DNA from: an uncultured virus (IMG/VR IMGVR_UViG_3300042554_001444)
Taxonomy: Duplodnaviria; Heunggongvirae; Uroviricota; Caudoviricetes
DNA length: 64,000 nt
Strand: one strand, 5' to 3'
IMG/VR virus record: IMGVR_UViG_3300042554_001444
Below the pieces are notes generated by a model. It searched no databases. It saw only the letters and a program-made list of their open reading frames with translations, and was not told the origin of the DNA. Each line of letters opens with the position of its first letter. The stretch's first letter is position 1. This document shows positions 1-56,085 of the stretch, in pieces. The translations under genes and the position numbers were made by a program.

Positions 1-1
1 C

Positions 2-1120
2 ACCCGCAGTGGTTCCACGTTGAAGGTGTACATCAACGGCACGGACACAGCCTACAGCGACACCGGAAGTGGATCTTGGTCCGACACTGTAACCAGTACG
101 TTTTTGAACGTCGGAGTCTTTGATGCGAGTGATCTTTTCGTTGGCCGCATCTACCGCGCCGTCGTTTTCAACCGCGCACTGTCCGCAACCGATGTCACCG
201 AGCTTATCACCACCGGCGTGAATCCGGCGGATCAGTGGGGGACGCAGACGGCACTTGTCAGCGGCTCGACGCTGAACGGAGATTTCGAAACTTGGACAGT
301 CGATGGAGTTGCTGGTGTCAGCAACGGAACCGCGACGAGTTGGTCTATTACGTCGGTTGGGGCTGGTAATACTGGCACAAAGAACAGTGTAGCCCCTATT
401 AGTGGAACATTTGATGCACTATTAACCATGGGTGCAACTAGCGGATTAGTGGCCGCCAACGCGTCATCAGTAACGATTCCGCTTGGGAAAAGGGTCAGGG
501 CGGCCATTTCAGCAAAACGACTCAGTGGAGTCGGAGCACTTCAGCTTGTCAACGGGACATCAAACACAGTTGTTAAGAGCATTTCGTTGACGACTGGTTC
601 CACAGTAACCGATTCCACGGAATACGTTTGCGATGGGCCTCGTCCGTATTGGTTGCTGTCAACTACCAACACCGTAGTCCAAATCGACAACGCTATCGTT
701 GAGCGCATCGGCGCAATCGTAGACCTCGACTTTACTGTCGGCACCGGCTACCAAGCCACCGACCGCAGCACCAACAACCTGCACGGCACGCTCTTCAATG
801 GCGTTGAGTTCACGCAACCGAGGCGCATGGCGGTGCTGTACGCGACGACCACCGCTTCTGGCAACACTCAACTCCTCGGTACGCTGGCCATCCCGACCAA
901 TGCAGTCATCGAGGACGTAGTCGTCAACTCAAGCGGATCGGCTACCGTCTCAGTTGGCAATGCTTCCGCCGGCACCCAGATCGTCAATGGCGCATCGGTT
1001 GTCTCTGGCCGACAGAAGCTCACCATCGCCACTCCGTTCAGCACCACCGGCAATCTGTGGGTGGCCAGTTCCGCAGCCGTGACACTCCAATTCACCATCT
1101 TCTACACCATCGCCGCCTAA
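2..1120 (+). CDS. LamG/concanavalin-like virion fibre protein, 3' part (allele A; 5' part is 37179-37639 if circular)
   Basis: KVYING and GRIYRAVVFNRALS LamG motifs, then an NGDFE-type carbohydrate-binding-like domain; paralog of 37179-38741. Confidence 0.8.
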   Translation, partial: TRSGSTLKVYINGTDTAYSDTGSGSWSDTVTSTFLNVGVFDASDLFVGRIYRAVVFNRALSATDVTELITTGVNPADQWGTQTALVSGSTLNGDFETWTVDGVAGVSNGTATSWSITSVGAGNTGTKNSVAPISGTFDALLTMGATSGLVAANASSVTIPLGKRVRAAISAKRLSGVGALQLVNGTSNTVVKSISLTTGSTVTDSTEYVCDGPRPYWLLSTTNTVVQIDNAIVERIGAIVDLDFTVGTGYQATDRSTNNLHGTLFNGVEFTQPRRMAVLYATTTASGNTQLLGTLAIPTNAVIEDVVVNSSGSATVSVGNASAGTQIVNGASVVSGRQKLTIATPFSTTGNLWVASSAAVTLQFTIFYTIAA

Positions 1121-1123: not shown

Positions 1124-1354
1124 ATGGACAAAGAAATTACACTGGAAACAGCTCCACTCGAAATCATCACCTTCGATCCTCCGATCAAGGTTTCGGAGGA
1201 CAAGATCGTCGGTGGCACCGTAGTCACCTCAGCGGAAATTGAGCCTACCGATGCGTCCGGTATGGTCATCGCACGGATCTTGCCCATCGGATTCGTCATG
1301 GGATTCCCGTTCATTGACTCCAACGAAAACAGCATCAGGGTTGCCCTGAGCTGA
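1124..1354 (+). CDS. 76-aa protein linked to the LamG gene (possible fibre chaperone)
   Basis: Near-identical paralog at 38745-38975 with conserved frame. Confidence 0.75.
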   Translation: MDKEITLETAPLEIITFDPPIKVSEDKIVGGTVVTSAEIEPTDASGMVIARILPIGFVMGFPFIDSNENSIRVALS

Positions 1355-16010: not shown

Positions 16011-16063
16011 TTCACCACAGGGGCCGCGCATCTGACCAACGCGAAAAAAAATTAAAAAATGTT

Positions 16064-28109: not shown

Positions 28110-28112
28110 TCC

Positions 28113-37178: not shown

Positions 37179-38741
37179 ATGAGTTGGAATCTTCAACAGC
37201 CGATTACAGCCGAACTCGCCGCGAACAAGGCGAACAAGGACGGCACTGACTTTACGAATCCGGCCACTTGGCGCACGGGCCTGGACGTTGTCAATACCGC
37301 CGAGTCTCGCCGGCAGGGTACGATGGATCTCGCTGCGGTGGCGTTCGATGGGGCGACGACTGCGACGCGGGTGTCAGCCCCGTGCCAAGCCATCGGAACC
37401 GGAGATTTCTCTATGTGGGTCCGGTTTCGGGTTCCAGTCGCCCAACCGTCGGTGGGCGGACAAGGGGTCATCACCACGTCTGGTGGTTCTACCGGCGCGG
37501 GTTCAAGGGCCTTTGGTATTCGTTTGTCCTTAAGCACGCTGAATGTCACGTTGCGTGATGCAGCTGGGGCAACGGCCAAGAATGCGGGTTTGTCAAATTT
37601 TCACACGAACTTCGCCGGACAAGTGGTTGATGTGGTTGTCACCCGCAGTGGTTCCACGTTGAAGGTGTACATCAACGGCACGGACACAGCCTACAGCGAC
37701 ACCGGAAGTGGATCTTGGTCCGACACTGTAACCAGTACGTTTTTGAACGTCGGAGTCTTTGATGCGGGCGATCTTTTCTTCGGCCGCATCTACCGCTCCG
37801 TCGTCTTCAACCGCGCACTGAGTGCTGGCGATGTCACCGAGCTTATCACCATCGGCGTGAATCCGGCGGATCAGTGGGGGACGCAGACGCAGATTTGGAA
37901 CACGACCACGCTCAATGGTGGTTTTGAAACCGCTGGCGGTGGTGGTGCTGATGTGTTTGCAAACTGGGTGGAGTTTACAAGTGGAACAGGCGTTTTATCA
38001 AGGGATACTGTTGATTACAGTCCTGACCTTGGAAGCACTGCTTCTGCAAAAGCTCTTGGAACAGACGGAACCGCTGTTTGGTCGTTGTACAATACGCCCA
38101 CTCTTGTAGCTAATAAACGCTATAGGATATCGGCTGCACACAAACGAAGTGCAAATGCCAACGTTGTTTGGAAAACAGTTACCACAAACCTAATTCTTGC
38201 AACCTTCGCAGTAACCACCAGTTGGGGAAATTATTCCGGCGAGTTCGTGATGCCTGCGAACGAGTTTGTGAAAGTTGATGGCGGAGGAAACAATACGACG
38301 TGGATCGACAACGTTATCCTTGAGCGCATCGGCGCAATCGTAGACCTCGACTTCACCGTCGGAACCGGCTACCAAGCCACCGACCGCAGCACCAACAACC
38401 TGCACGGCACGCTGTTCAACGGTGTGGAGTTCACGGTTCCGAGGCGAATGGCGGTTCTCTATGCGACGACCACAGCGTCCGGCAACACTCAGATGCTCGG
38501 CACCCTGGCGATTCCGACCAATGCAGTCATTGAGGACGTAATCGTCAACTCGACCGGATCAGCTACCGTCAGCGTCGGCAACGTCTCCGCTGGCACCCAG
38601 ATCGTCAACGCCGCATCGGTTGTATCCGGCCGACAGAAGCTCACCATCGCCACGCCGTTCAGCACCACCGGCAATCTGTGGGTGAACAGTTCCGCTGCCG
38701 TGACGCTCCAATTCACCATCTTCTACACCATCGCCGCCTAA
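37179..38741 (+). CDS. LamG/concanavalin-like virion fibre protein (allele B central domain)
   Basis: GDFSMWVR, VVVTRSG..KVYING, FNRALS, NGGFE domain. Confidence 0.85.
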   Translation: MSWNLQQPITAELAANKANKDGTDFTNPATWRTGLDVVNTAESRRQGTMDLAAVAFDGATTATRVSAPCQAIGTGDFSMWVRFRVPVAQPSVGGQGVITTSGGSTGAGSRAFGIRLSLSTLNVTLRDAAGATAKNAGLSNFHTNFAGQVVDVVVTRSGSTLKVYINGTDTAYSDTGSGSWSDTVTSTFLNVGVFDAGDLFFGRIYRSVVFNRALSAGDVTELITIGVNPADQWGTQTQIWNTTTLNGGFETAGGGGADVFANWVEFTSGTGVLSRDTVDYSPDLGSTASAKALGTDGTAVWSLYNTPTLVANKRYRISAAHKRSANANVVWKTVTTNLILATFAVTTSWGNYSGEFVMPANEFVKVDGGGNNTTWIDNVILERIGAIVDLDFTVGTGYQATDRSTNNLHGTLFNGVEFTVPRRMAVLYATTTASGNTQMLGTLAIPTNAVIEDVIVNSTGSATVSVGNVSAGTQIVNAASVVSGRQKLTIATPFSTTGNLWVNSSAAVTLQFTIFYTIAA

Positions 38742-38975
38742 GTTATGGACAAAGAAATCACACTGGAAACCGAGCCGCTCGAAACCATCATCTTTGATCC
38801 TCCGATCAAGGTTTCGGAGGACAAGATCGTCGGTGGCACCGTAGTCACCTCGGCGGAAATCAATCCGCCCGATGGGTCCGGCATGGTCATTGCACGGATC
38901 TTGCCCATTGGCTACGTCATGGGTTTTCCGTTCGTTGACTCCAACGAAAACTCTATCAGGGTTGGCCTGAACTAA
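37640..38975 (+). repeat. Copy 2 of imperfect direct repeat (copy 1 = 1-1354)
   Basis: Offset 37639 before and 37621 after the swapped central block (37890-38303). Confidence 0.97.
38745..38975 (+). CDS. 76-aa protein, paralog of 1124-1354
   Basis: Direct alignment. Confidence 0.75.
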   Translation: MDKEITLETEPLETIIFDPPIKVSEDKIVGGTVVTSAEINPPDGSGMVIARILPIGYVMGFPFVDSNENSIRVGLN

Positions 38976-39003
38976 TTAAAACCCCTCTCACCCCCACCCA
39001 CCA

Positions 39004-39210
39004 ATGCCGGAGGAGAACCTTCACAACCTTGAAGTCCGCATCGTGAGACTCGAAACCATCATCGGTGACAAAGACGCGGGGATGGTCTCCGACATCCACG
39101 GCATCAAATCCACCGTCGAAGGACTCAAGCAGTTTCAGTGGAAGCTGTTTGGCGGCCTCGGGGTTTTGGTTGTGCTGGCCCAACTGATCGGTAGGATCGG
39201 ACTGAAATGA
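39004..39210 (+). CDS. Coiled-coil protein with C-terminal TM segment (XhlA-like architecture)
   Basis: RIVRLE...WKLFGGLGVLVVLAQLIG. Confidence 0.65.
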   Translation: MPEENLHNLEVRIVRLETIIGDKDAGMVSDIHGIKSTVEGLKQFQWKLFGGLGVLVVLAQLIGRIGLK

Positions 39211-39401
39211 ATGACTCACTGAAATCCATCGTCCGCCACGGACTCTCGTTCGGTGGCGGTTTCCTTGTCGCCAAGGGCCTTGTGACCGTTGACCAAGCCA
39301 ATGAGCTTGCCGGCGCTATCATCACGCTCCTAGGCGTCGGCTGGTCCGTCTGGAAGAACTCCAAGACCCCGCCGGCTCCGCCCGCTGCTCTAGCTGCGTG
39401 A
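39207..39401 (+). CDS. Putative holin
   Basis: IVRHGLSFGGGFLVAKG...GVGWSVW, two TM segments. Confidence 0.7.
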   Translation: MNDSLKSIVRHGLSFGGGFLVAKGLVTVDQANELAGAIITLLGVGWSVWKNSKTPPAPPAALAA

Positions 39402-39568
39402 ACTGGATCTACCAACTGGCAAAGGCGTTCCTGGACTGGCTCCGGGAAACGCCTGCGCCAACAGTCGAAGACGGAAATGCGCCAAAACCTCTCAAGAACG
39501 ATCTGGCTGCTCGTATTGCCAATCTGCCTGGGCTGCCAGACAAAAGTGATCCTGGTGCCAAACGGTGA
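39398..39568 (+). CDS. Putative i-spanin-like partner (56 aa)
   Basis: Not in track; MNWIYQLAKAFLDWLRE; homolog of 1749-1922. Confidence 0.55.
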   Translation: MNWIYQLAKAFLDWLRETPAPTVEDGNAPKPLKNDLAARIANLPGLPDKSDPGAKR

Positions 39569-39692
39569 CCCGGTGCTGCTGGCGGAGCCGGTGCGCGCCA
39601 AAGTCTACGCGTTTGACAAGCAAGGCAATCTTGCTGGCCCCTCAACTGTGAAGATTCCAGCTGGGTGGTACGCGCTGCCCAAGGCGAAATGA
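39477..39692 (+). CDS. Putative o-spanin lipoprotein
   Basis: Signal peptide with lipobox CLG-C. Confidence 0.7.
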   Translation: MRQNLSRTIWLLVLPICLGCQTKVILVPNGDPVLLAEPVRAKVYAFDKQGNLAGPSTVKIPAGWYALPKAK

Positions 39693-39838
39693 AAACCAAG
39701 TACGCCAAACTGGTCACGAAGCTCAAGAAGCAAGGCGCTGACGATCCCCGCGCTCTCGCGGCCTTCATTGGCAGAAAAAAGCTCGGCGCGGAAGAGTTCC
39801 AACGCCGAGCCGCTGCTGGCCGTAAGGCCGCTCGTTAG
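39689..39838 (+). CDS. 49-aa basic protein
   Basis: Not in track; KLKKQGADDPRALAAFIGRKKLG; 4-nt convergent overlap with the scaffold gene. Confidence 0.7.
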   Translation: MKTKYAKLVTKLKKQGADDPRALAAFIGRKKLGAEEFQRRAAAGRKAAR

Positions 39839-41082
39839 TACGCCGAGGGCAGTTCGTCGATCGCGTCTTCCGCGTTCTTAGGAGCTACACGGGTCGCCGT
39901 CGAGGTGCCTTCGCCTTGGCCGGGTTCAGACGACCGGACCTTGCCGACCTTCTTCTCCAGTTCTGCCACCTTCTGCTGGAGGCGGATCACACGCAGACGC
40001 TCACGCCCGTAGGCCCGCGCCCGTAGAGCCACTTGAGCCTGGGCCTTGGTAATCAGGTCTACCTTGTCGTCGTAGCCCATGTCGGCGTCGATGCCTTCAC
40101 CTTTGAGGGCAATGCGCACCAAGCGGTCGCTCTCGTCCAAGAGCTTGTTGCCATCTTCATCACCGTCTTCCCGGCCGAACAGTTGGGCGTGGGTCTTCTC
40201 GTAGTCCGCGAACTGAGACTCGAACAGGTCACGCGAGCGCGTCTGGCGGCTCTCCAGCTGCTTCTTTGATTCGACCTCACGCTGGGCGCCCTTCTCCTTC
40301 CACTCGGAGATGGACTTGTCCCGCGCCTGGGTCAACTCGATGAGCCGCCGCCGGTGCGCCATGATCTCGGGTGCAGCCGCACCAAAGGTCTCCTGGGCGA
40401 TGATAGCAGCCTTGGCCACCGGCACATTGAGGAGCGCCATAATGTCCTGATGATTGGCGTCACGCTCGTTGCCATCTGGATCAGTGACGCGGATGCCCTC
40501 AATGTCGCCCAGAGCGGTCTGCCAGGCTTCGCGCAACGGCCCCTCGTACTTCTGCTTGTACTCGCCGGAGCGGGTGTAGTTCAGGTAGCGGACCTCGGTG
40601 TCGAGTTCCTCGGCGTTCTTGCGGATCGAATCCATCTCGGCCTTGAGAGACTTCGTTGCCTCCTCAACCTCCTTGCGGGTGCCCTCGGACTTGACGCGCT
40701 CAAGCTCTTGGATCTTGGCGGCAAGATCGTCGCGCTCCTTCTTGGTGAGTTCGTACTGCTCGCGGAACTGCTTCAACGAGGCTGGCTCGTTCTTCGGTGC
40801 TGGATCCGGTGTTTTGGCAGGTGCAGCAACTTCGGTTTTGGGTGAGACCAGCTTGTCTAGGCCGAAGGGGTCTTCGTTCTTCTGAGCTGCAGCCGGGGTG
40901 ACGGGCGCCGGTTCTGGTGAGGCGACCGGGGCTGGTGCTTGTGGCGCAACGGGAGCGGCGGGTGCCGGTGAACCCATTGGATTTTCAAGCGCATTCCCTT
41001 CGAGGGCGTCGATGCCAGCGAAGGCTTCGGTGTAATCTGCGCCCCGCTCGGTCGGCGCGTCTGGTGATAGCAGCAAGTTCAT
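39835..41082 (-). CDS. Putative capsid scaffolding protein
   Basis: Acidic/Pro-rich N-terminus, long coiled coils, downstream of portal. Confidence 0.65.
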   Translation of the reverse strand: MNLLLSPDAPTERGADYTEAFAGIDALEGNALENPMGSPAPAAPVAPQAPAPVASPEPAPVTPAAAQKNEDPFGLDKLVSPKTEVAAPAKTPDPAPKNEPASLKQFREQYELTKKERDDLAAKIQELERVKSEGTRKEVEEATKSLKAEMDSIRKNAEELDTEVRYLNYTRSGEYKQKYEGPLREAWQTALGDIEGIRVTDPDGNERDANHQDIMALLNVPVAKAAIIAQETFGAAAPEIMAHRRRLIELTQARDKSISEWKEKGAQREVESKKQLESRQTRSRDLFESQFADYEKTHAQLFGREDGDEDGNKLLDESDRLVRIALKGEGIDADMGYDDKVDLITKAQAQVALRARAYGRERLRVIRLQQKVAELEKKVGKVRSSEPGQGEGTSTATRVAPKNAEDAIDELPSAY

Positions 41083-41342
41083 TCAAGGTTCTGTTTTACG
41101 GTCGGTTTATCTCTCTGCGTCGTCACCAGCCCATGAAGCTCCTCGATCAACGCCTTGGCGCCCTGCCGGCGGCAGTTGGCGTTCCAGCCGTGTTGAGGGT
41201 TTTCGGATGCTGGCAGGTTCCAGCAGAGATTGTTGAAGGCAGCCAACAGCGCGGCTTGGAAGTTGGCGTTGTCCAGTAGGCGCTCAAGCTCCATCACGCG
41301 ATCTTTGTCGCGCTGAAACTCTTGTTTTGGGGATTGGATCAT
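41079..41342 (-). CDS. 87-aa portal-linked protein
   Basis: MIQSPKQEF...RRQGAKALIEEL; coupled on both sides. Confidence 0.65.
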   Translation of the reverse strand: MIQSPKQEFQRDKDRVMELERLLDNANFQAALLAAFNNLCWNLPASENPQHGWNANCRRQGAKALIEELHGLVTTQRDKPTVKQNLE

Positions 41343-43612
41343 TGGTTGAGGATATTTGCCTGAGTCTTCAAATCCAGAGCCGCAATGTCCGCCCGGGTCA
41401 TGGCACCCTTGCGCTGGGCCTCGGCGATCGTGTTGGCGTTCTTGCGCTGCTGATCCTGATCGAAAGCAACCTGCTTCTGGATGCGCTTCTGTTCGGCGTT
41501 CGCAGCGGCGATCTCGGACTTGGACTGCGCGGTGATGAGCATTGCCTGAATCTTGCCGGCCACCTCGGGGTTCATACCGTTGCCAGCTGCACCAGCTTCG
41601 GCCTGAGCCTGAGCCTGCTCTTGGAGACGCTGCACGTAGCCCTTGATGTAGTTCGACGCCTGACTGATTCCGTCGTTGTAGAGCTTCATGTTCTGCTCTT
41701 GGCCGGGGTCTTCGGAGATCAACCCCATCTGCTCTTGGATGTGCTGAATGACATTCACCAATCCCATGACGCGGTCCATGGTCGTCATACCGCCCTGCTC
41801 CTTTTCGATACGCCCAATGGCGCCACCAAGCATCTGGAGAAGCGTCTGGATGTACTCGGGCCGATTCATCGCGCTGGCGATGACCACCGGCTGGCCGTCG
41901 ATGAGCGTTCCCCAGGCCAGCGTGGCGCGCTCGACCGCTGGGGATACCGGTTTGTTGTCCACCGGTGCGAGGCGGTTCGCCAAAAGCGGATCGTCCGTGT
42001 TGGCTTCGACGTACATGTGCACAACCTCGGCCTGAGAATCGGGTGCTAGCAGGGGCCGGATAGCCATGAGGCGGTCGGCCTGCGCGATCTCCAGCATCTT
42101 GTTGCCGGAACCCATGACGCGCTCGGGCATGATGTCCCAGCTGTCGAGGTTTTTCCAAACGGATGGATCGACGCCTTCGACTTCACACTTCCGGCGGAAC
42201 TGAACGCAGTCGGGATGGTCAATCGTGCAGAACCGGCGAGCGATCTCCCGGTACTGAAACGATTGCTGGGTGTAGGCACGGGTGAGCATCGAACCCATGA
42301 GCGCGTTGGCGTTGTTTACGCGGGCCATCACCTCGGTCGCCGTCAGTTCCTTGGAAGAACCGTCGTTCACGTCCTGCGTGTAGGCTGCGCTGGACTCGGC
42401 CATAATCTGCCGGTGCATGGACATAGCCCCAGAGAGCATCGTGTAATCCACGACATGGCGCTCAGACTGCGGAACCCACGACAAGCCCTCGGGGATCACG
42501 CCCATGTTGAACAGGTCGATCTTCTCCATCCGTTCAGCGTCACCGTCCGCGACGTTGCGGAAGAGCCAGAGCATCTGCTCGAACACGGAGTCCGTGAATT
42601 TGCAGCGTAGGCGGTTCTGAAGGTGGCAGACCGCGTAAAGCAGGTAGCCCAGTGATCGCACCGAGTGCCAGCGGAACGGCGGCACGACAGCACCGTCGGC
42701 GAACTGGATGTGCATCAACTCAAAGATGTCCCGGCCGTAGCACCGATTTCCGGCGTCGAAAAGCCACTGGCCAGCGGTCTGCATATTGCCGATGCCGCTG
42801 TTGTACTGGTCCACGATGATCCGGCGGCGCCAAGAGGGATCGTCGCTGGTCGTGTCCAAAAAGTAGAAATCGTAGCACCGCAAGACCGGCGTTGCGTCGG
42901 ATCCCCAGTAGCCGGAGTTCTCCTTGAAATCCTCCTCAATCTTCTCAGGGAAGTATTGGCCGGACCAGTCGTTCACCTGGAGACTGGTCGCCTCCTTGCT
43001 AATCATGTTGGCCAACAACTCGTTGACCAGCTTCATGTTCCAGCCCTCGTCCACGTTCTCGCCCCGAGTCATCCGAATCAGGTCGGCCGCCGTGAAAGAC
43101 GTGTAAATCGCGAAGTGCGACAGGTTCTCCATCGTGGTCAACGTGTTCGTCGGGACCAGGATGTCCTCGGTGCCGCGAGCCGATGGGCACCAGTCGCGAT
43201 CACGGAGCCAGGTGACCGGGCCGATGCCGTGAAGCACGGTGGCCGCAAACTGGGACTCCAAGACCGTGGAGTATTTCGGAGACCGCTTCATCACGCGGTT
43301 CAGCTGCTTCGTGATGATGTTGCCCCACTGGGTGCGCTTGTCCCGTGGGCCTATGTCGAGACCTACCGAGAAGTAATTCTGCGGTTTCAGGAACGCGTTG
43401 GTGAACTGCTGGCGCGCCGCGTGAATGATCCGCGTGCCTTCCAGGAAGTTCACGTTGGTCTGGATCCGGTTGTCTCGCGCCTCCTCGTCGCTGTAGGGAG
43501 GGTTGCCGTTGAATGTCGCGTTGATGCGGGCGCGGTTGCGAGATCGAGGCTGCTCTGCTTCAAGCATCGCGCTGACCACATTCCAGACTTTACTCGGTTC
43601 TTTGAAACTCAT
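41339..43612 (-). CDS. Portal protein (podovirus, P22-like length)
   Basis: 757 aa; TATEV motif, long Gln/Ala-rich C-terminal helix; near terminase. Confidence 0.8.
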   Translation of the reverse strand: MSFKEPSKVWNVVSAMLEAEQPRSRNRARINATFNGNPPYSDEEARDNRIQTNVNFLEGTRIIHAARQQFTNAFLKPQNYFSVGLDIGPRDKRTQWGNIITKQLNRVMKRSPKYSTVLESQFAATVLHGIGPVTWLRDRDWCPSARGTEDILVPTNTLTTMENLSHFAIYTSFTAADLIRMTRGENVDEGWNMKLVNELLANMISKEATSLQVNDWSGQYFPEKIEEDFKENSGYWGSDATPVLRCYDFYFLDTTSDDPSWRRRIIVDQYNSGIGNMQTAGQWLFDAGNRCYGRDIFELMHIQFADGAVVPPFRWHSVRSLGYLLYAVCHLQNRLRCKFTDSVFEQMLWLFRNVADGDAERMEKIDLFNMGVIPEGLSWVPQSERHVVDYTMLSGAMSMHRQIMAESSAAYTQDVNDGSSKELTATEVMARVNNANALMGSMLTRAYTQQSFQYREIARRFCTIDHPDCVQFRRKCEVEGVDPSVWKNLDSWDIMPERVMGSGNKMLEIAQADRLMAIRPLLAPDSQAEVVHMYVEANTDDPLLANRLAPVDNKPVSPAVERATLAWGTLIDGQPVVIASAMNRPEYIQTLLQMLGGAIGRIEKEQGGMTTMDRVMGLVNVIQHIQEQMGLISEDPGQEQNMKLYNDGISQASNYIKGYVQRLQEQAQAQAEAGAAGNGMNPEVAGKIQAMLITAQSKSEIAAANAEQKRIQKQVAFDQDQQRKNANTIAEAQRKGAMTRADIAALDLKTQANILNQ

Positions 43613-43619
43613 ATTGACC

Positions 43620-44012
43620 TCAGATTGATTTCCGTTCCTGTGAAATCCAGCAATTATCGGGCATCACCGTGTCGCCAAGGTAGCTGAGAGGCACCCAAAC
43701 CTTCAGTTTCAGGTAGCACCCGCAGACATCGCAGGTGCCCGCCAGTCCCTCGCCGTGCAAAAACATGACCATCTCGTTGCGCGCCTGCTCCTGCTCCAGA
43801 ATTGCCTCGGCCACGGTCTTGGTGATCGACCGCGTATCCGTGGGTTTGTTGTGCAGGCAGCGTTTGCAGGTATCAATGCGGTCCTGCGCCTGCTGGCGTT
43901 CTACAGGCGTGCCACCATCACCCAGCCACTCAGCTAGGATGCGCGCCCCTTGAGCCGTTTGGCGCAACTTAGCGGCCGCACGTGCGACAGCCTGAAGTCC
44001 TTGGTTGTACAT
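43620..44012 (-). CDS. Cys-rich (Zn-binding-like) protein
   Basis: CKRC, CDVCGC.L..K motifs. Confidence 0.65.
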   Translation of the reverse strand: MYNQGLQAVARAAAKLRQTAQGARILAEWLGDGGTPVERQQAQDRIDTCKRCLHNKPTDTRSITKTVAEAILEQEQARNEMVMFLHGEGLAGTCDVCGCYLKLKVWVPLSYLGDTVMPDNCWISQERKSI

Positions 44013-44235
44013 TTGTGGATGGGTTGGGAGCCATTTGAGGAAACCGCGCCCGCGTGTAAGCCTCCAGATCGCTGACAGCCTGCTCGATCGTAGACGGAAT
44101 GCTGTTGGCGACCCGGTGTTGATGAATCAGGCGCACCATCTCGTAGAAGCCGTAGTTCAATACATCCTTGGGACTCCAGTTGGTCTTGGGTTCGTAGAAC
44201 TGCCAGCCGCCGGGAGGGAACGTGTCGCGATTCAT
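43969..44235 (-). CDS. Hypothetical protein
   Basis: PPGGWQF...ends GCRTCGR. Confidence 0.65.
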   Translation of the reverse strand: MNRDTFPPGGWQFYEPKTNWSPKDVLNYGFYEMVRLIHQHRVANSIPSTIEQAVSDLEAYTRARFPQMAPNPSTNVQPRTSGCRTCGR

Positions 44236-44244
44236 AGGTGAGGT

Positions 44245-44676
44245 TTAGAACGGAACATCATCTTCGTCGAGATCAGGCTTCGGTGCGGCAGCTGCTGGTG
44301 CAGCCTCACGTCGCGGAGCCGGAGCCGGAGCCGCGCCCTCGTCGCGTCCCTTCAGGAACTGGAAGGTCTCAATCATGATCCGAGTGGTGGACCGCTTCTC
44401 GCCGGTCTTCTTGTCGTCCCACTCCTCACGGGTCAGGCGTCCCTCAACCATCAGCGGGTGCCCCTTCTTCACGTACTGCGCGATCGTTTCGGCCTGCTTC
44501 CCGAAAGCCTTACACTCAGCAAAGTAGACATCCTCCTTTTCCTCACCGACCTCATTCTTCCAGCGGCGATTCATCGCCATGCTGACATTGCAGACGGGGG
44601 TTCCTTTCGGGAGGTACTTGAGTTCTACGTCTCGGGTGAGGTTGCCGATCAGGATGACTTTGTTGAATGAGGCCAT
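44245..44676 (-). CDS. ssb: Single-stranded DNA-binding protein
   Basis: FNKVILIGNLTRD, KKG..LMVEGRL, DDVPF tail. Confidence 0.96.
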   Translation of the reverse strand: MASFNKVILIGNLTRDVELKYLPKGTPVCNVSMAMNRRWKNEVGEEKEDVYFAECKAFGKQAETIAQYVKKGHPLMVEGRLTREEWDDKKTGEKRSTTRIMIETFQFLKGRDEGAAPAPAPRREAAPAAAAPKPDLDEDDVPF

Positions 44677-44679
44677 AAG

Positions 44680-46452
44680 TTAGGAATAGGTAAGCGAATG
44701 TTCAGACTCCATCGTGCGCCGCTTGGCAGACAGACGTGTCAGCCACTTTGGTGTCTGTCGCTTGACAATACCAACACCTTGACCGCCTGCAATCTCAAAA
44801 CCCGTTCTGCGTGCCATTTCGAGCGCCACCACGAACGAATCCCAGAGGTCAGGCGACCTACCCATGCGTTCCTTGGTCTTCTCCTTGGGTTCAACGTCGA
44901 TCAACCCGGTGCGGGCGATACCCCACTCACGCATCGAACCTTCCTCGGCGACTTCGCGAGGCAGTTTCCGTAGCTGCTTGGATTCGATCAGCAGGCGCGA
45001 TGAATACCAAAGCGCGGTTACCATCTTGCCGTATGCCTCTCGTTCAGTTTTCGGATCACCCTTTCGTACTGGGCGCTCGCTTGGTCGGCCGCCGAACTCG
45101 ATGGGCACTACCTCAGGAGACCACAATCGGGCGAACGCAGACATGAGCGTGCCGCGCCCCGTGGAGTCAAACCCAACGCGTTCCGGTGAGATATTGCGCT
45201 GCTTGCAGTACAGCAGGACGTACTCGGCAATCTGCTCCTCGGCCTGCTGTGCTTTGACTGCGGTGACCGGGATAACGATCGGCGCCTCGCTGAATGCTAG
45301 CACGATGCGCCCAGATGAATCCGGCCCAAACGTGAGGTCTGTCATTACGCAGCGGTCGCCGCCGACACCTGAATACGCAGCGTCGATGCCGATGATTCTG
45401 GTGAGCTTGTCGGCACGTTCCCACACGGGGTCGTCAAACGCTTGGTTCTGCTCGCACAGGGACATTGTAACTACGCGCCTGGTGCCGCCGTCCCGAGGCA
45501 GCACGCCAAGGTTCATCATCGAGAACTGCAACGAGTCCCGGCCGTAGTAATCGAGATCCGCCTGAATCTGTTCCGGCGTGATGATTCCCTTGTACGGGTT
45601 GGTGCCCTTGGGAAACAACGCGTTGGGCGTGTCGTACCCGCACAACTGGACAGCCACGCCACCGGGCGCCCGCGTTCTCCAGGTGCGAGTCTTTTCGAGG
45701 TACTCAAGCCCCTCCCAGCCGCCGATTGATGGATGCGGCTCGCAGACCACACCCAACGCGTCGTTTCGGTCCTTGGGGTTGCCCATCGCGATCAGCTTGA
45801 ATACTGGGTTTTTGCGGAGGTTGGCGACGGAGTCCAGAAAGCCGCGCCCCATAAGGGATGCCTCGTCTGCGATCAACATGACCCGGTCGTTCTTGAGGCC
45901 GACGTAGTTCGAGAGGCCGACAAACGTGCCGCCTATTTTGCACGCAACGCCGATGATACCATCACGGAAATCCTTCGCCTCATCATCTTCATCTGAACTG
46001 GTCAGGATGAACCGGCTTTCGATCACGCGTCCAGGGAGCCACTCCCGCTTCTTCTTGGCCTTGTTGTGAAGCTCCTTGATCGAGCCCCAGATGCGCAGCT
46101 GAAGACCCTCACGTGTCGTTGACGACATGATGATCGAGGTGCCGGTGGGGTAGATGTAGAACGTGCAGAGCCCGAACGCTGCTGAATTGTAGGTCTTTCC
46201 AGATGATCCGGGCCCCATGACGCCGATCTCTTTGTTTTCAGCGAATGTCTGAATCAGGAGATCAGACCAGTTGTGCCAGTCGAAGTGCGGCCAGAGCGCG
46301 GTCATGGCCTGCCGGAAGTGGTAGTATTTGCCGCGCCCGTACCTCACTCCGGCGTGCATAATGTATCCGTCTTTACGCACCATCTCAGCCTCGATCAGAA
46401 AACGGTCTTTTGTACGCCACGGTATAGACAAGTAATCGGGGCTTTCATTCAT
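44680..46452 (-). CDS. terL: Terminase large subunit (phage B)
   Basis: GPGSSGKT, LIADEA, MGNP, GIDAA..GGD, DSTGRG, K..K.R.GRSPD.D motifs. Confidence 0.92.
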   Translation of the reverse strand: MNESPDYLSIPWRTKDRFLIEAEMVRKDGYIMHAGVRYGRGKYYHFRQAMTALWPHFDWHNWSDLLIQTFAENKEIGVMGPGSSGKTYNSAAFGLCTFYIYPTGTSIIMSSTTREGLQLRIWGSIKELHNKAKKKREWLPGRVIESRFILTSSDEDDEAKDFRDGIIGVACKIGGTFVGLSNYVGLKNDRVMLIADEASLMGRGFLDSVANLRKNPVFKLIAMGNPKDRNDALGVVCEPHPSIGGWEGLEYLEKTRTWRTRAPGGVAVQLCGYDTPNALFPKGTNPYKGIITPEQIQADLDYYGRDSLQFSMMNLGVLPRDGGTRRVVTMSLCEQNQAFDDPVWERADKLTRIIGIDAAYSGVGGDRCVMTDLTFGPDSSGRIVLAFSEAPIVIPVTAVKAQQAEEQIAEYVLLYCKQRNISPERVGFDSTGRGTLMSAFARLWSPEVVPIEFGGRPSERPVRKGDPKTEREAYGKMVTALWYSSRLLIESKQLRKLPREVAEEGSMREWGIARTGLIDVEPKEKTKERMGRSPDLWDSFVVALEMARRTGFEIAGGQGVGIVKRQTPKWLTRLSAKRRTMESEHSLTYS

Positions 46453-46495
46453 CTTGCGGGAATGATGGGTTGGCCTTTCAATGGCTTCAAGCGTC

Positions 46496-48535
46496 ATGGT
46501 AGCAGAAAAAAATCGCATCGTTGATGGCCTCCTTACCGCTGAAGGTGGGGTGGACAGCGGTTTTTCGCCCTCACTGATTCAGCCCAACCAGCTGGCCTGG
46601 GCGGTCAACACGACGGTGCGGGGAGGATTCCCGAAAGCGCGGCCGGGAATCTGGGTGAAGAATCTCACGTTCGATGATCCGACCGTGGTCTACAACAATG
46701 GGTACTACAACGCGGCGGTAAAAAAGGCGTTTGAAAAAGGCCAGTTTCAAGGATGCGGCACCTACATTGCAGACAACACGGATCCGTTTTTGTTTGCGTC
46801 CGTTGGCGGCAAGGTGTTCCAGATCGACATTAAGAACGGGTTCAAGGTCACCGACCTCACGCCGATAAATTTTACCTTCCAGGTTCAGACTCGCGGCCGG
46901 GTTTCCAACGTCGCGACATACGTTTGCGGCGTTCCGCACGGCCTGTCCCCAGGTATGGTGGTTCGACTTACTGAACCTCCAGGTGCGTTCTTTCCTGATG
47001 GATTTTTCGGAGACTTCATTGTTGAGACTGTCCCGAGCGCCACGACGTTCACGACGTACTCACCTGGCGTTGACGCAGGCCCGCTGCTTGGTCCGGCATT
47101 CAACTGCTACCAGATGGCGACCAACGATCCGCAAGGGTCGCACGTCTACTTTCAGCAGGCGGAAAACTGGCTTGTGATTCAGGATGGCCAGAATCAGCCG
47201 TACCTTTACAACGGCTCGACGCTCCGGCGCGCAACTGGCGAAGAAGTCCCTGTTGGCGGCCCGATGGCCTACGGCAAGGGGCGCCTCTGGGTTGCCAATG
47301 GATCGGAATACTACGGCGGCGATTTGGTCTACGGCGACCCGTCCTATGGGCGCGACTCGGTTATTCGCTTCACCGAAAACACGTTCCTCAATGAAGGCGG
47401 TGCCTTCGCTGTTTCAAACGGCCCAATCACCGGTCTGGCGTTTGCCGCCAACCTGGACACGTCGCTGGGAGACGGCGACCTGCTGGTATTCACTCCTACC
47501 GCAACCTACGCGTTCAACGCCCCGGTTGATCGGGATGTCTGGAAGGATCTCGATTATCCGATCCAGCGGTTCGCTCTGCTGAACTTCGGATCGTTCAACC
47601 ATGAGTCCATCGTTGCGGTCAACGGCGACCTGATTTTCCGGGCGCAGGATGGCATCCGGTCGTTGATCTACGCTCGCCGCGACTTCACCGAGTTCGGCAA
47701 CACACCGATCAGCCGGCAGGTTGTGCGGGCGCTGGCTTACGACACTGATTTTTACCTGACCGCTGCCAGCGCGGTGAATTTCGACAACCGGATGCTGATG
47801 ACCATCCAGCCGCGCAAGATCAACAACCGGGGTATCGTTCATGGCGGTCTTGTCGTGCTGGATTTCGATCTCGTTTCGGGCATGGGGCGGAAGCTGCCGC
47901 CGGCGTGGGAAGGCGTCTGGACTGGCGTAGACGTGTTCCAGATGCTGACTGTTCGAGTGAAGCGCACAGAGCGGTGCTTTGCCTTCGGACTGAATCAGGA
48001 CTACATCGGCCTCTACGAGGTCACCAAAAACGGCCAGTTCGACTTCGACGGGTTCGATGATGCTCCGATCGACTGGACGATCGAGACACGCTCGCTGACT
48101 TTCGCCGAGCCCACCAACAAGAAACGCTTGGTTAGTGCTGAGCAATGGTATGACCAAGTGATGGGCGACATCGAATCCAAGGTCTACTTCAAGGCCAACG
48201 AAGGAGAATGCTGGCAGCCTTGGGCCGAGTTCAAAGACTGCGCCAAGTACCGCAACTGCGAGCCCGGCGAGATTTCGTGTCCCCCAGCGGTGATCAACTG
48301 CCAGGAGGTCAAATACTACCAGCCGCCTACGCGCTCGCGCATTGCCCTGCCGCAACCCCCGGACAAGTGCGACGTGCAGACTGGCGGATTCACCCGAGAT
48401 GGTTATGAGTTCCAACTCCGCTACGTCAACACGGGCCGGTTCCGCCTTAAACGTGTGGCAATGGTTGCGCAACGTCTTCAGGAGGATCTCTACGGGGACC
48501 TCAGTCGCGTCGCCTGCCCGCTCCTCTCCACCTAA
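46496..48535 (+). CDS. Tail tubular/nozzle-like beta-propeller protein
   Basis: ~680 aa; NTTVRGG.PKARPG, GRLWVA, FRAQDGIRS; position in podovirus tail module. Confidence 0.7.
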   Translation: MVAEKNRIVDGLLTAEGGVDSGFSPSLIQPNQLAWAVNTTVRGGFPKARPGIWVKNLTFDDPTVVYNNGYYNAAVKKAFEKGQFQGCGTYIADNTDPFLFASVGGKVFQIDIKNGFKVTDLTPINFTFQVQTRGRVSNVATYVCGVPHGLSPGMVVRLTEPPGAFFPDGFFGDFIVETVPSATTFTTYSPGVDAGPLLGPAFNCYQMATNDPQGSHVYFQQAENWLVIQDGQNQPYLYNGSTLRRATGEEVPVGGPMAYGKGRLWVANGSEYYGGDLVYGDPSYGRDSVIRFTENTFLNEGGAFAVSNGPITGLAFAANLDTSLGDGDLLVFTPTATYAFNAPVDRDVWKDLDYPIQRFALLNFGSFNHESIVAVNGDLIFRAQDGIRSLIYARRDFTEFGNTPISRQVVRALAYDTDFYLTAASAVNFDNRMLMTIQPRKINNRGIVHGGLVVLDFDLVSGMGRKLPPAWEGVWTGVDVFQMLTVRVKRTERCFAFGLNQDYIGLYEVTKNGQFDFDGFDDAPIDWTIETRSLTFAEPTNKKRLVSAEQWYDQVMGDIESKVYFKANEGECWQPWAEFKDCAKYRNCEPGEISCPPAVINCQEVKYYQPPTRSRIALPQPPDKCDVQTGGFTRDGYEFQLRYVNTGRFRLKRVAMVAQRLQEDLYGDLSRVACPLLST

Positions 48536-48536
48536 A

Positions 48537-51500
48537 ATGCCATCCTCAAACCCAGTCGATTACGGTGCTGACCCCTGCGGGCGGCGAAACAGCGCGTGGG
48601 CAATCAACGAGTGCCTAATCGCTTCCGGGCGTTGCGATTTTCCAGAGGGTACGTTTCTGCTGGGATCGAGTCCGGGGGTGAAGATTATCGACCGTGTCCG
48701 CACCGGAGGTGTCGCGACGTTCAACACGGCGACGCCGCACGGGCTGGTTGTTGGCGAGAAGATCACGCTCTACGGATTCACTGATCCTACTTTTAACGGC
48801 ACAGGTCCAGGGCAGTTCGGATTCCAAGTTTTAAGCACGCCGACGCCGACGCGTTTCACAGCGTCGATGCCGCTGCCGACCTATCCAGACGCTCCGTTAG
48901 TGGTTCAAGACGGCTGGATCAACCTGATCGGCGGCGGCTACACCTCGTCCATTGTCATGGGGTATGCCCCGGTTATCAACAACGTCGCATTCACGGGCAA
49001 AGGAGCCGGAAAAACGATTGTCAAATTCGCTGACAACACCTCGGCGAAAAGAGGAGACACTTTCGGCTTCAACATCCAGATGCTGAAGACCCTTGGAAAC
49101 TACCCGGGTTTTGGTGTCGTGGGCGCTCCCGGGGCTTATCCAGGCGTGCCATTGTTCAGCGTCAACTGCAAGAACACCTTGATCGAGTGGATAACCTTCG
49201 ACGGCAACTACGCGAAAAACTCGGTTGCGGACATCAAGATCGTCTCAGTGCAGCGCACCAACGGTGTCAACACGTACACCGTGGACAAGCCGCTGTATGA
49301 TCCCGGAATACCTGGCACCCAGTTCTATTCCGTTCCCCCTCCGGCGTACATCCCGCCGATTTCGCCTGCGCCGTACACAAATATCAGCGCAGCCAACCAG
49401 TACATCGCGAACGTGGTGACATCCGGTCCCGGAAATGACTTGTCATTCGTTGGGTTTGGATTCATCACGAACGTGACTCAGTTTTCATTCGAGCGAGACC
49501 TTCGCGTGGTGCTAACACAAGGCCGGATCAATCAATTTGGATTCGCAATCTACACCAAGCATCCGCAATGGAATTTTGGATTCACGATTGGTGATACGAT
49601 CACGGTGACCGGATACTCCAATGCCGCGTTGAACGGCACGTTCGTCGTTGCTGGAGTCCTTTCTGCACAGGAGGTCTTCTGCGTGAACGCCGGCACCGCC
49701 ACGGTGTTTTCAATGATCGGTTACGAGCGGCTTACCAACGTCGCCACCTATGACACTGCACTTGCTCACCCGTTCATTTTTGGAGACACGGTGGTCATTT
49801 CAGGGTTCGCTGACCCAACGCTAAACGGAACGTTTGTCGTCACTGGAGTGCCGTCTCCGGCGCAATTTACCTGCGCGAATGCTGGTCCAAACACAGGGGT
49901 TATGGCAGATTCTGGATCGGCCTACGAGGTAATCAACGAGAACGCCCGCGCATGGGCCGCGCCAAACGTGCCGTTGACGGTGCAAACCAAAGCAGGCGTC
50001 AACTCTCTCTACACGGTCGCCGGAATCAATCATGGCGGAGAGAAGGCTCTCTTCCAGAAAAACCAGTTCTACGACTTCGGCGTCGGTGTGGCGGACGCAG
50101 AGACGTTTATTGCGAAATCGTTCCTGCCCATGAACGTCGATGACCTCACGGCCGGCGCCAAGGTGTTGAGCAACGACTTTGGTTACCAGGGGCGCAACTC
50201 GATCCAAAGCACGCTGTATCCGGGCAATGCAGAGGCAAACACCCAGTGCGCGATCGGTGGCTATTCGAGCTTGGTGAACCCGATCAACGTGGTGTCAAGG
50301 TCGGCTGGCGTGGCGACGTACACTTGTGTGATGAAACACACACTGCGGGTTGGGGATGTGGTTCCGGTGACGATAGGAAACTACGTTTTTGGAATCATCT
50401 CCGCTCAACGGCAATTGAACGTCGTGACGTTCACCACATCGCAGAAGCATTTTCTCGCACCTGGCAGTAGCGTTACCGTCGATGTCAGCAACAACTCGTT
50501 CGACGGATCTTTTTCTGTCGTAAGCGTTGTCAGCGACTTCGCGTTTACGGTCGCACAGGTAGGCGTTGACGTTTTCCCAGCAATCGTGGTCACTGGATTC
50601 GGGAACGTAAATCTTGGGTTCTCTGGATCGTTGACCATCACATCGACCCCCGACGCCTTCCGGTTCACAGCTGCCGCAGCTGGCCCGAACGTACTTCCCG
50701 GCCTCTACCTCGACGGCCAAGTCATCATGCTTCGCAGCCGGCGGATCTTCGCCTCGGAATGCCTGTTTGAAGGCAACAAGGTTCGCGGCGGCCCAGATCC
50801 CGTCAATCAACAGAGCCCCGTGATTGCCGTTACGGTGCGCGAGACCAGTGGAGCTATGATCCGGAAGAACAACTTTGACGGCTTCCGCGGGACCTGCTTC
50901 TACGTTGATTCCTACCAGCACAAAGGAACCAAAATCCAAAACAACTCGGCCCTCGGGGTCTCGGCGTTCATCGCGCTGACCGTGCAGGACTGGTACGCGC
51001 TGATTCAAACCGTCACGCCCCCAGTTGCGAATCCCGAGACCTACTCGACGCTGATTGCGGCCCACAAGGACATGCTGATCGAGAACAACGACATTCTCCT
51101 GACCGGCCCTAATTCTTGGTTCTACCAGACCGCGTTTGCGCCATTGGATGCAGTCTTTTTGATCTACAACCACGACGTGGACAAATCGAGGTATTACTAC
51201 CCAACCGACTACCAGATTCCGATTACGTCCGCATCCCGCGCCGCCAACATCTCGACGTTCACGACTGCTTCCGATCACGAACTCCAGGTGGGAATGGAAA
51301 TCTCTACGATTGGAGTGACTGACGGCACCTTTAATGGCGTCTTTACGGTTGCCAGCACCCCTTCATCCACGACTTTCACCGTCGCAAATCCCGGTTCAGC
51401 CGTATCGACGGCTGGTGGATTTCTTGGAATCAACGACCCGGTGAAGTTCCCGTGGGAGATCCGCCCGATTGGATACCAGCGCACTGCCGGCGTTGCCACG

Positions 51501-51908
51501 TACACGACCAACAAGGCGCACCAACTTACGCTTGGCGCTTACGCGACCATCGAAGGGTTTAGCAACACCTCGTTCAACGATGAGGTAATCGTGACCGGCA
51601 CGCCAACGCTCTACACCTTCACCTGCGCCAGCCCAGGACCCGATGTGCCGTTCACGTCCGAGACTGGAAATTTCTTCCGGTACATCGAAAACATCCAGAT
51701 TGGCTGCAACCAAGTGCTGCGCCTGAGCGGAAACGAACTGGTCATCAACAACGGCGGCCGATTCGGTGTATCGTTCCTCCAGGGGCGCCCAGTGCGTTGC
51801 GTTGCCCCGCTGGATCAGTTCTTCTATTTCGATTGTCCCGAGGGCTGTTTGGCGCTTGAATGCGACCCAGGCCCGTGTAAGCCCAACGACTACCTTTACC
51901 GCATCTAA
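48537..51908 (+). CDS. Tail spike, pectin-lyase-like beta-helix with multiple inserted beta modules
   Basis: DYGADP.G...S.WAIN, FPEGTF, FTGKG.GKT, ITFDGN; 7-8 RxxxVAT.T..H.L..G modules. Confidence 0.8.
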   Translation: MPSSNPVDYGADPCGRRNSAWAINECLIASGRCDFPEGTFLLGSSPGVKIIDRVRTGGVATFNTATPHGLVVGEKITLYGFTDPTFNGTGPGQFGFQVLSTPTPTRFTASMPLPTYPDAPLVVQDGWINLIGGGYTSSIVMGYAPVINNVAFTGKGAGKTIVKFADNTSAKRGDTFGFNIQMLKTLGNYPGFGVVGAPGAYPGVPLFSVNCKNTLIEWITFDGNYAKNSVADIKIVSVQRTNGVNTYTVDKPLYDPGIPGTQFYSVPPPAYIPPISPAPYTNISAANQYIANVVTSGPGNDLSFVGFGFITNVTQFSFERDLRVVLTQGRINQFGFAIYTKHPQWNFGFTIGDTITVTGYSNAALNGTFVVAGVLSAQEVFCVNAGTATVFSMIGYERLTNVATYDTALAHPFIFGDTVVISGFADPTLNGTFVVTGVPSPAQFTCANAGPNTGVMADSGSAYEVINENARAWAAPNVPLTVQTKAGVNSLYTVAGINHGGEKALFQKNQFYDFGVGVADAETFIAKSFLPMNVDDLTAGAKVLSNDFGYQGRNSIQSTLYPGNAEANTQCAIGGYSSLVNPINVVSRSAGVATYTCVMKHTLRVGDVVPVTIGNYVFGIISAQRQLNVVTFTTSQKHFLAPGSSVTVDVSNNSFDGSFSVVSVVSDFAFTVAQVGVDVFPAIVVTGFGNVNLGFSGSLTITSTPDAFRFTAAAAGPNVLPGLYLDGQVIMLRSRRIFASECLFEGNKVRGGPDPVNQQSPVIAVTVRETSGAMIRKNNFDGFRGTCFYVDSYQHKGTKIQNNSALGVSAFIALTVQDWYALIQTVTPPVANPETYSTLIAAHKDMLIENNDILLTGPNSWFYQTAFAPLDAVFLIYNHDVDKSRYYYPTDYQIPITSASRAANISTFTTASDHELQVGMEISTIGVTDGTFNGVFTVASTPSSTTFTVANPGSAVSTAGGFLGINDPVKFPWEIRPIGYQRTAGVATYTTNKAHQLTLGAYATIEGFSNTSFNDEVIVTGTPTLYTFTCASPGPDVPFTSETGNFFRYIENIQIGCNQVLRLSGNELVINNGGRFGVSFLQGRPVRCVAPLDQFFYFDCPEGCLALECDPGPCKPNDYLYRI

Positions 51909-51910
51909 CC

Positions 51911-52897
51911 ATGCCTGAGATCAACCTTACCGCCGGCGTGCTGCCGCCACCCGCCTGTTTCGCATCTGAGCAGGATCGTTTGGACGCCTACGCGGCCGCG
52001 CTGATTGCTCAGTTCGCAACCTCGCCGGAGTGGGTGGCAAGCGCGATCGCTCCGGTTGCTCCGAATCTCGGACTCTACTGGTTGCGCCTGGACGCTGGTG
52101 GAAATCCTGTCGAAATCCTGAAGTACAACACTACGGCTCCGGCCGGATGGGCGCGGGTCACAACCCAGCTGACCTACGGTGTTGGCGGAGGTGTTCCAGA
52201 TGCCTACACGGTTACCTTGGCGCCGGCGTCTCCGGGGGTGAACCAAGCGTATCGCACCGGTGCAACCTACGCTTTCGGGGCGTCGAACGCGAATACTGGC
52301 CCCAGCACGCTTTCGGTTGACGGGTTCGCAACCAAAGCGATCACCAAGTATGGCACTACGGCGCTGGTCGCAAATGACATCAGGCTTGGCCAGATGTGTG
52401 TCGTGGTCTACGACGGCACGCGTTTCCAGCTGCTAAACCCCGGTCAGAATATCGGGCCGGCAAACATCGCACCTGGAACCGACCGTCAATTTTTGAGGAC
52501 CAACTCGGCACCGGCATCGGTGTGGGAGTCGGGGTACATTACGCCGGTGGCAAACTATCAGGCGATTCCGGCGGCGGGTGCTTCAGTCACGTTCTCGCAT
52601 GGTTTTACGGTGGACCCATTGTCTTGGGACATTGGAATCATTTGCACGGATGCAACCGGTGATGCCGGATACACCGGAATCAATCCGGCTGGCGGAGATT
52701 ACATCCCAGTTGGAAGCATCCTTCGGACAAACCTTTCTGAAAGCGATATTCGGGTCACCGGATTTTCAAACGCTACCACTATTGGCCTTGTTCGCGGTAG
52801 CGCCGTTTCAGGTATTGCTGTGAACCACAAAACCACCGGTGTCCTAACAGCCATCGACGAAGCCAAGTGGCGAGTCATGGCTCGCGCCATCCGCTAA
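51911..52897 (+). CDS. Tail fibre-like protein
   Basis: ANTGPSTLSVDG...NDI..G....VVYDGTRFQLLN. Confidence 0.75.
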   Translation: MPEINLTAGVLPPPACFASEQDRLDAYAAALIAQFATSPEWVASAIAPVAPNLGLYWLRLDAGGNPVEILKYNTTAPAGWARVTTQLTYGVGGGVPDAYTVTLAPASPGVNQAYRTGATYAFGASNANTGPSTLSVDGFATKAITKYGTTALVANDIRLGQMCVVVYDGTRFQLLNPGQNIGPANIAPGTDRQFLRTNSAPASVWESGYITPVANYQAIPAAGASVTFSHGFTVDPLSWDIGIICTDATGDAGYTGINPAGGDYIPVGSILRTNLSESDIRVTGFSNATTIGLVRGSAVSGIAVNHKTTGVLTAIDEAKWRVMARAIR

Positions 52898-52898
52898 C

Positions 52899-53987: not shown

Positions 53988-54436
53988 TGGAGATTGAGAA
54001 GCCCATCACCTGGTTGGAGTTCTTGACCGACGGCGACACCTCGCTTGATGAGCGCCTTGATCGGTGGGAGGCTTTCGTGGCTGACAAGCCGCAGATTGAG
54101 TGCCCGCTTAAACACACCTATCCCGAGGGCCTGTATGTGCGGGAAATCTTTGCGCCAGCTGGGTCAATCATCACCAGCCGGATCCACAAGTTCGATCACC
54201 CGTTTTTCCTGCTTCAAGGAAAGCTCACGGTAATCAGTGAAACCGAGGGGTTGGTGACATACACTGCGCCGGCCCACGGGATCACCCTGCCGCAGACGCG
54301 ACGGGCAATTTTGATACATGAGGACACCGTGTGGATCACGGTCCATCCGAATCCTCAGAACAAAAAAGATCACGAAGAGATCAAAAACGACCTCACTTAC
54401 ATGAGGGACAACAAATACTTACTATGTCTTGGGTAG
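53987..54436 (+). CDS. Cupin-like protein
   Basis: GLYVREIFAPAG....RIHK..H, W.TVH. Confidence 0.75.
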   Translation: MEIEKPITWLEFLTDGDTSLDERLDRWEAFVADKPQIECPLKHTYPEGLYVREIFAPAGSIITSRIHKFDHPFFLLQGKLTVISETEGLVTYTAPAHGITLPQTRRAILIHEDTVWITVHPNPQNKKDHEEIKNDLTYMRDNKYLLCLG

Positions 54437-55206: not shown

Positions 55207-55209
55207 CCT

Positions 55210-56079: not shown

Positions 56080-56085
56080 TCGACT

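Follow-up and report, generated by a model that had tools for sequence, protein, structure and literature searches.

A 76-kb uncultured virus record that is probably an assembly chimera of a siphovirus and a second, unrelated phage

Introduction

A virus record with two terminase genes raises the question of whether it describes one genome or two. The DNA analysed here (the window) comprises positions 1 to 64,000 of one 75,916-base record (IMGVR_UViG_3300042554_001444), and its opening bases recur, letter for letter, far inside it. In SPAdes-type assemblies, circular genomes carry an end overlap of k-mer length. The record resembles such an overlap in that its first k bases return after one genome length (37,639 bp, with k = 127); it differs in that the second copy lies inside the contig, whose path apparently continued into a different genome. 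A test for end repeats would therefore class the record as linear and over-long, not circular.

Chimeric contigs of co-existing viruses that share similar regions are a known assembly error; a benchmark (Roux et al. 2017; PMC5610896) places metaSPAdes among the affected assemblers and gives such chimeras as usually <5% of contigs of ≥10 kb. Compared with the chimeras described there, the bridge here is one tract of ~430 nt between phages that are otherwise unrelated, not strain-level similarity, and our contig goes completely round one genome before crossing into the other. Here, we report the evidence for reading the 76-kb record, with a probability of about 0.92, as an assembly chimera of phage A (37,639 bp) and a separate phage B of ~46.9 kb.

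Materials and Methods

Words of the interval 32640-42639 were contained in 24 sequencing runs of 23 studies, all available as Logan contigs. Eight runs were mapped over 28000-47999 and were read for cover, bridges, and depth per contig; uncovered stretches were not counted as absence, and 15 further runs with shares near 0.5 were not used. Logan depth is one mean word depth per contig, summed over everything mapped, and the run designated X1 is only a possible source of the record. Logan contigs are built with k = 31, which cannot bridge a 430-nt repeat, so that two separate circles and a cointegrate give the same graph. Gene families were assigned with PHROG and Pfam profiles. Phage A's tape measure protein was used as a query in metagenome contigs and found five loci, three of which (L040, L041, and L043) were informative; in the other two, the upstream sequence was too short to show gene order. 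Phage-like contigs binned with metagenome-assembled genomes (MAGs; L044, L045, and L046) were collected as relatives of phage A's terminase or of a 757-aa protein of phage B.

Results and Discussion

The exact repeat and the proposed assembly path

Direct sequence comparison reproduced the repeat that a sequence-only reading had described: 37640-37766 is an exact copy of 1-127, the 127-mer is found at these two places only, and the first mismatch sets A at base 128 against G at 37767. The computed chance expectation of such repeats in 75,916 bases is ~1e-67, and the last 127 bases of the record are unique within it. The repeat forms the perfect core of a longer similarity (94.8% over 1-250 and 37640-37889), followed by a diverged middle, in which the two copies differ in length by 18 nt, and then by a block of 88.6% identity (683-1355 and 38304-38976); nucleotide similarity between A and B stops at 38976. 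Features of the window are collected in Table 1.

Table 1. Coordinates of the two repeat copies, the shared tract, and the principal genes of phages A and B in the window
Feature	Coordinates	Strand	Evidence or remark
One lap of phage A, read as a circularly permuted siphovirus-type genome	1..37639	+	Gene set, ORF across the join, synteny
Repeat, first copy	1..127	+	Exact match, mismatch at 128; contig start
3' part of phage A's fibre-like gene	2..1120	+	Continues from 37639 in the circle
76-aa ORF after phage A's fibre gene	1124..1354	+	87% identical to phage B's copy; conserved cassette
Tape measure, phage A	2647..5442	+	phrog_3336, E 1.8e-24; homologues in L039-L043
Small terminase, phage A	at 23305		PHROG scan
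Large terminase, phage A	23910..25733	+	phrog_15, E 2.5e-117
Portal, phage A	26323..27756	+	phrog_21, E 1.6e-63
Protease, phage A	at 31407		PHROG scan
Major head protein, phage A	at 32541		PHROG scan
520-aa ORF at the join	37179..38741	+	Phage A's N-terminal ~51 aa, shared tract, phage B's C-terminal part
Tract common to phages A and B	37331..37766	+	Identity to an independent phage B contig (G1)
Repeat, second copy	37640..37766	+	Last 127 nt of the common tract
Phage B-specific sequence	37767..64000	+	Runs on to 75,916 in the full record
Phage B's copy of the 76-aa ORF	38745..38975	+	
Large terminase-like gene, phage B (the record's second terminase)	44680..46518	-	phrog_2, E 4.3e-10 (weak)

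The repeat is as long as the largest k of the JGI metagenome workflow, whose description (10.1101/2020.09.30.320929) gives metaSPAdes with k of 33, 55, 77, 99, and 127; this record may have been assembled in the same way. The earlier statement that 127 is a standard largest k-mer agrees with that series. In a k = 127 de Bruijn graph, two genomes with an exact common tract would form a figure of eight. Phage A's private edge would begin with the last 127-mer of the tract (contig bases 1-127), circle A, re-enter the tract at 37331/37342, and meet the same 127-mer at 37640-37766, where a path extender that could not traverse the loop again would proceed along phage B's outgoing edge at 37767. Since the 127-mer would close A's loop in the graph, 127 nt would be the vertex overlap and not the length of a biological repeat. 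Bases 1-127 are probably the k-mer overlap that opens this private edge. The A-to-B join is likely an assembly artefact and not a real biological feature, and the crossing point of the assembler likely lies within 37331-37766.

Phage B as a separate genome

An independent viral contig of 47,440 bp (IMGVR_UViG_3300042452_000457; G1) was found both by a search with the 520-aa protein and when viral contigs were scanned for a 50-mer of the tract, a scan that matched G1 and one further contig (G2) only; the A-to-B junction was in neither. G1 carries phage B without phage A. Its positions 1-29761 correspond to our 46156-75916 with 67 mismatches (57 of them within 46174-46603; 74204-75916 is 100% identical), and its positions 38069-47440 correspond to our 37331-46702 with one mismatch. 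G1 joins our 75916 to 37331 through 8,307 bp that are missing from our contig and that encode a primase/helicase (phrog_239, E 3.5e-15) and a helicase (phrog_16, E 1e-102). Its ends overlap by 547 nt at 89.6% identity, giving a circle of ~46,893 bp, and G1 likewise looks like a contig that ran once round B and then left into a strain variant. Because G1 has its own sequence where ours has 37.3 kb of A, phage B exists elsewhere by itself. From this alignment, the record would hold an incomplete phage B, 38.6 of 46.9 kb, from which replication genes are missing.

The one mismatch in the second alignment lies at 37341 (G here, A in G1); the match is exact from 37342 on, and the sequences of the two contigs are unrelated immediately upstream of 37331. 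This gives the identical tract a length of ~425 to 436 nt, depending on whether its start is set at 37342 or 37331. Of the original proposal, the fusion of two phages through a shared gene holds up; the shared tract is ~430 nt rather than 127 nt, and the label of podovirus given to phage B found no support.

From 38976 onward, profile scans detected a second, unrelated gene set that includes a single-stranded DNA-binding protein (SSB), virion and tail proteins, RecT, an exonuclease, and RadC; Pfam and PHROGs returned nothing on most B proteins. Both a terminase and a portal had been proposed after 38975. The former is borne out, weakly, by the phrog_2 match in Table 1, and the 757-aa ORF put forward as the portal (41339-43612) matched no family in the PHROG and Pfam scans.

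Several minor observations concern phage B and G1. A 3,198-aa ORF extends from 56086 to record position 65682 (L001:86-9682), its only recognisable part being a ResIII/helicase-like segment at residues 828-1056. The end of the record (75,855-75,916; L001 19,855-19,916) is non-coding with repeated GAGGGGT-like motifs, and G1 continues through it unbroken. Within the self-overlap of G1 (L015 1-547 versus L017 6894-7440), the last 99 nt are exact, and 99 is also a member of the JGI k series. Host assignment from the MAG-binned contigs was rejected, as the labels disagree: Verrucomicrobiota for the A-like terminase versus Caulobacterales and Ca. Aquidulcis for B-like sequence.

Coverage and flanks in sequencing runs

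A comparison of read depth between the two halves of the record had been suggested, and in X1, the possible source run, the Logan contigs of the halves differ. On the A side, a 10,906-nt contig had a depth of 60.2 and a 2,020-nt contig one of 62.5; the six listed B-side contigs had depths of 97.6 to 127.8, a 1.6- to 2.1-fold difference; the bin that holds the tract (37338-38004) reached 158. The 2,020-nt A-side contig ended at 37371, which is 30 nt (k - 1 for Logan's k of 31) past the A/B difference at 37341, and the loose end before 37331 spelled the upstream letters of G1. The same letters stood directly before 37331 in runs X2, X3, X4, and X5, from four other studies, and X5 contained a 6,291-nt contig that began 1,274 nt upstream of 37331 and ran through to 42347.

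The ratio of A to B varied by run (X2, A at 0.4 to 3.4 and B at 24 to 32; X3, A at ≤3.6 and B at 264 to 426). In X4 and X5, cover of the A half was zero or close to it; in X7, X8, and X9, most of the B half lacked cover, and the pieces that matched were short and mismatched. A-like phage contigs in X7 (7,286 nt) and X8 (6,651 nt) started at 31398, differed from our sequence at ~82 to 87 positions, and ran through the A junction and the tract; the one from X8 terminated exactly at 37766, and the one from X7 extended as far as 37889, beyond which its middle part belongs to neither A nor B. Each side of the junction thus occurs elsewhere with its own, different flank.

These data bear on the possibility that the record reports, partly correctly, a real cointegrate, a molecule of ~84.5 kb formed when A and B recombined at the tract in a co-infected cell. 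A tract of ~430 nt at 100% identity would serve homologous recombination well, the order of tract, A, tract, and B is that of a single-crossover product, both phages are present in X1, and the Logan contig graph would be the same for both cases. Equal abundance of A and B and an absence of free junction flanks, which a cointegrate would entail, were nevertheless not what X1 showed: depth was unequal, and B's own upstream sequence joins the tract there as well as in the four other studies. The X7 and X8 contigs, moreover, carry the A-side junction with no B sequence after it, the contig is without B's 8.3 kb including the primase and helicase, and 84.5 kb would exceed the packaging expected of capsids built for 37.6 or 46.9 kb. 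We consider a cointegrate very unlikely. It is similarly improbable that the lake sample contains molecules with A inserted into B at the fibre tract, as recombination intermediates of unrelated phages swapping a receptor-binding module in one host.

Around the tract, contigs of X1, X2, and X4 also join at 37781 from further unrelated upstream sequence, with the same loose-end letters in all three runs; in X3, only the last 9 of those letters were seen at that joint (side site, 37781 and 37802-37832). Since the same unrelated letters precede 37781 in several runs, at least one more genome has the fibre gene from there on.

Phage A as a probable 37,639-bp circle

Under the chimera reading, the contig up to 37639 would be one complete phage. 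That joining 37639 to 1 yields a circle with a complete siphovirus gene set had been part of the first description, and it is supported on three counts. Across the join, one ORF of 526 aa was recovered with a single terminal stop. The PHROG scan of 1-37639 returned a gene set that is complete without duplication, comprising, besides the hallmark genes in Table 1, tail assembly and tail proteins, exonucleases, RusA, a replication initiator, and a DnaC-like loader. Finally, L040, L041, and L043, whose homologues have 77 to 96% amino acid identity to phage A, share one order: portal, protease, head protein, a homologue of 35708-36877, a 94-aa ORF, and the fibre gene, followed by small ORFs like those at 1365-2058, homologues of 2068-2645, the tape measure, and tail genes. 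The fibre gene starts with MSWNIQKP in these relatives and with MSWNLQQP in phage A. The relatives carry the genes at phage A's apparent end directly before those at its apparent start, which supports the 37,639-bp circle.

The exact downstream allele of phage A (128-682) was in no independent contig of these searches. An exact 50-mer across A's branch side (111-160) had 0 matches in metagenome contigs, and the 3' part of the fibre gene as a protein query in viral contigs found 23 loci, all with other alleles and with phage B as the best, at 65%. Support for the circle thus comes from the k-mer overlap, the intact ORF, and the synteny of relatives. By hallmark genes, intact closure, and gene order, the reading of phage A as a complete circular siphovirus genome is supported. 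Neither 12001-37000 nor 39001-64000 had a megablast match among 50,697 phage records.

G2 (32,237 bp) is a more distant siphovirus contig in which homologues of the terminase and portal precede a fibre gene with 97.9% identity to 37331-37889; the next stretch is 80% identical to A's 719-1707. Such a spread of the fibre tract over at least three lineages (A, B, and G2), together with the fact that closure of the circle was in no independent contig of the same strain, could be taken to mean that the record is a chimera with a wrong circle, in which 128 to ~23,000 comes from a third phage and the path crossed twice. Each of L040, L041, and L043, however, holds both halves in the order of the circle, phage A's gene set shows no gap or duplication, and tetranucleotide correlations among four 9-kb blocks wholly within 1-36,000 are 0.91 to 0.96. 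In addition, X1 contains a contig (depth 48.1) of the shape expected of the private middle of A's gene (joint 37889 to 38304). A third phage in the record is thus highly improbable, and ranks below the cointegrate.

Finally, a single genuine phage of 76 kb or more, or a tandem prophage, with two structural modules and the repeat as a biological duplication would fit the contiguity of the deposited record and the equal GC content of its halves, and can be set aside almost entirely given that the repeat equals the assembler's largest k and lies exactly at the contig start, that B has different flanks in G1, that depths are unequal, and that family scans detected no bacterial genes or integrase.

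GC content was also tried as a separator of A from B and was rejected (0.592 on both sides). Tetranucleotide correlations between A and B (0.79 to 0.89) are modestly below those within A.

Between portal and protease, phage A has a block of ~3.6 kb (27753-31410). Its ORFs include one of 342 aa, whose product has six "Phage tail repeat like" units (PF12789, E 4e-63), one of 153 aa, and one of 479 aa that matched Kelch weakly. L040, L041, and L043 are without this block, and their protease follows directly after the portal. In X7, X8, and X9, the divergence of the A-like contigs sets in exactly at 31398.

The fibre-like gene and the cassette downstream

Returning to the preferred reading, the gene at the join is the one through which A and B would have been connected. 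The 520-aa ORF is probably an artefactual hybrid, to judge from the alignment with G1, and the protein that it predicts probably does not exist; the native fibre ORF of G1 has 630 aa and a different N terminus. Twelve aligned homologues show an interchangeable N-terminal anchor, a conserved core, a variable middle (absent in two), and a nearly invariant C terminus. At least four different N-terminal anchors occur: A's "MSWN..", "MAQQTINVGASANDGTG..", "MPDTKITAL..", and the 160 aa of B's own. The last ~650 nt of the gene and the 76-aa ORF downstream recur at 75 to 90% nucleotide identity in the viral contigs examined.

From this architecture, we infer that the shared gene encodes a modular protein of the fibre or receptor-binding type. 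On the fibre-like gene, none of the PHROG and Pfam families reached threshold. It had earlier been called an intact 526-aa LamG gene, of which the intact ORF across the join stands, and the LamG assignment is weak: Laminin_G_3 (PF13385) scored 23.8 bits on 2-1120 against a gathering cutoff of 27.6, and gave no match on the 520-aa and 630-aa proteins. A structure model of the 630-aa fibre had a low mean pLDDT (54.6), with core residues 175-335 at 75 to 92 and forming a beta-sandwich. Its fold matches were generic lectin-like jelly rolls, including laminin LG4-5, at TM-scores of ≤0.3, and a lectin-like fold of the fibre core is plausible on this model.

Mosaic tail-fibre and receptor-binding genes are exchanged between unrelated phages. 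The gene described here is like them in having lineage-specific anchors on a common core and a nearly invariant C terminus; it differs in that its function is read from architecture and in that A's gene sits between the tail-tube region and the tape-measure chaperones. Part of the fibre gene appears to have passed between phages A and B recently, and such an exchange would have given the assembler its bridge. As two unrelated lake phages with 100% identity over ~430 nt, they would be an ordinary but clean case of module exchange. The shared fibre core hints at a common host of A and B.

In siphoviruses of the A type, the start MSWN(I/L)Q(K/Q)P is kept in front of unrelated C-terminal parts (37179-37330; L040 6823-7873; L043 6217-7278), and the differing fibre of the relatives has a DYEEGT(F/W)TPT motif. 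A constant N-terminal start with unrelated C-terminal parts marks the locus as a swap site for fibre modules.

Downstream of the fibre gene, both phages have small membrane-type ORFs and an overlapping lipoprotein-like ORF, with weak homology between A and B (34% over 68 aa). The proposal of a second lysis cassette at this place in phage B was not sustained: the ORFs have hydrophobic segments and lipobox-like motifs only, none of 10 small plus-strand ORFs matched a family of known function (1 of the 10 matched a PHROG of unknown function), and PHROG and Pfam scans of the A and B parts found no endolysin. The minus-strand ORFs at 1117-2274 and 39125-39802 were rejected as genes; their translations are of low complexity, and the small plus-strand ORFs are conserved in L040 and L043.

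Use of the record

The record should be read as a complete 37,639-bp siphovirus plus an incomplete, different phage, and its main value lies in quality control. Taken at face value, it would imply a phage with two packaging modules and would distort analyses of genome size, completeness, clustering, and host prediction. The case also suggests a screen, in which contigs whose first k bases recur exactly at an internal position are flagged as chimeras of this kind.

Outside the fibre gene, phages A and B share distant homologues: an exonuclease-like gene (phrog_10477; 12437-13033 versus record 67950-68543, ~70% nucleotide identity) and a second pair at 16059-16469 versus record 71533-72009 (136-aa versus 158-aa protein, 43% amino acid identity). 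Two exact 30-nt matches between A and B were also seen, at 18218-18247 and 18577-18606 versus 69521-69550 and 69219-69248.
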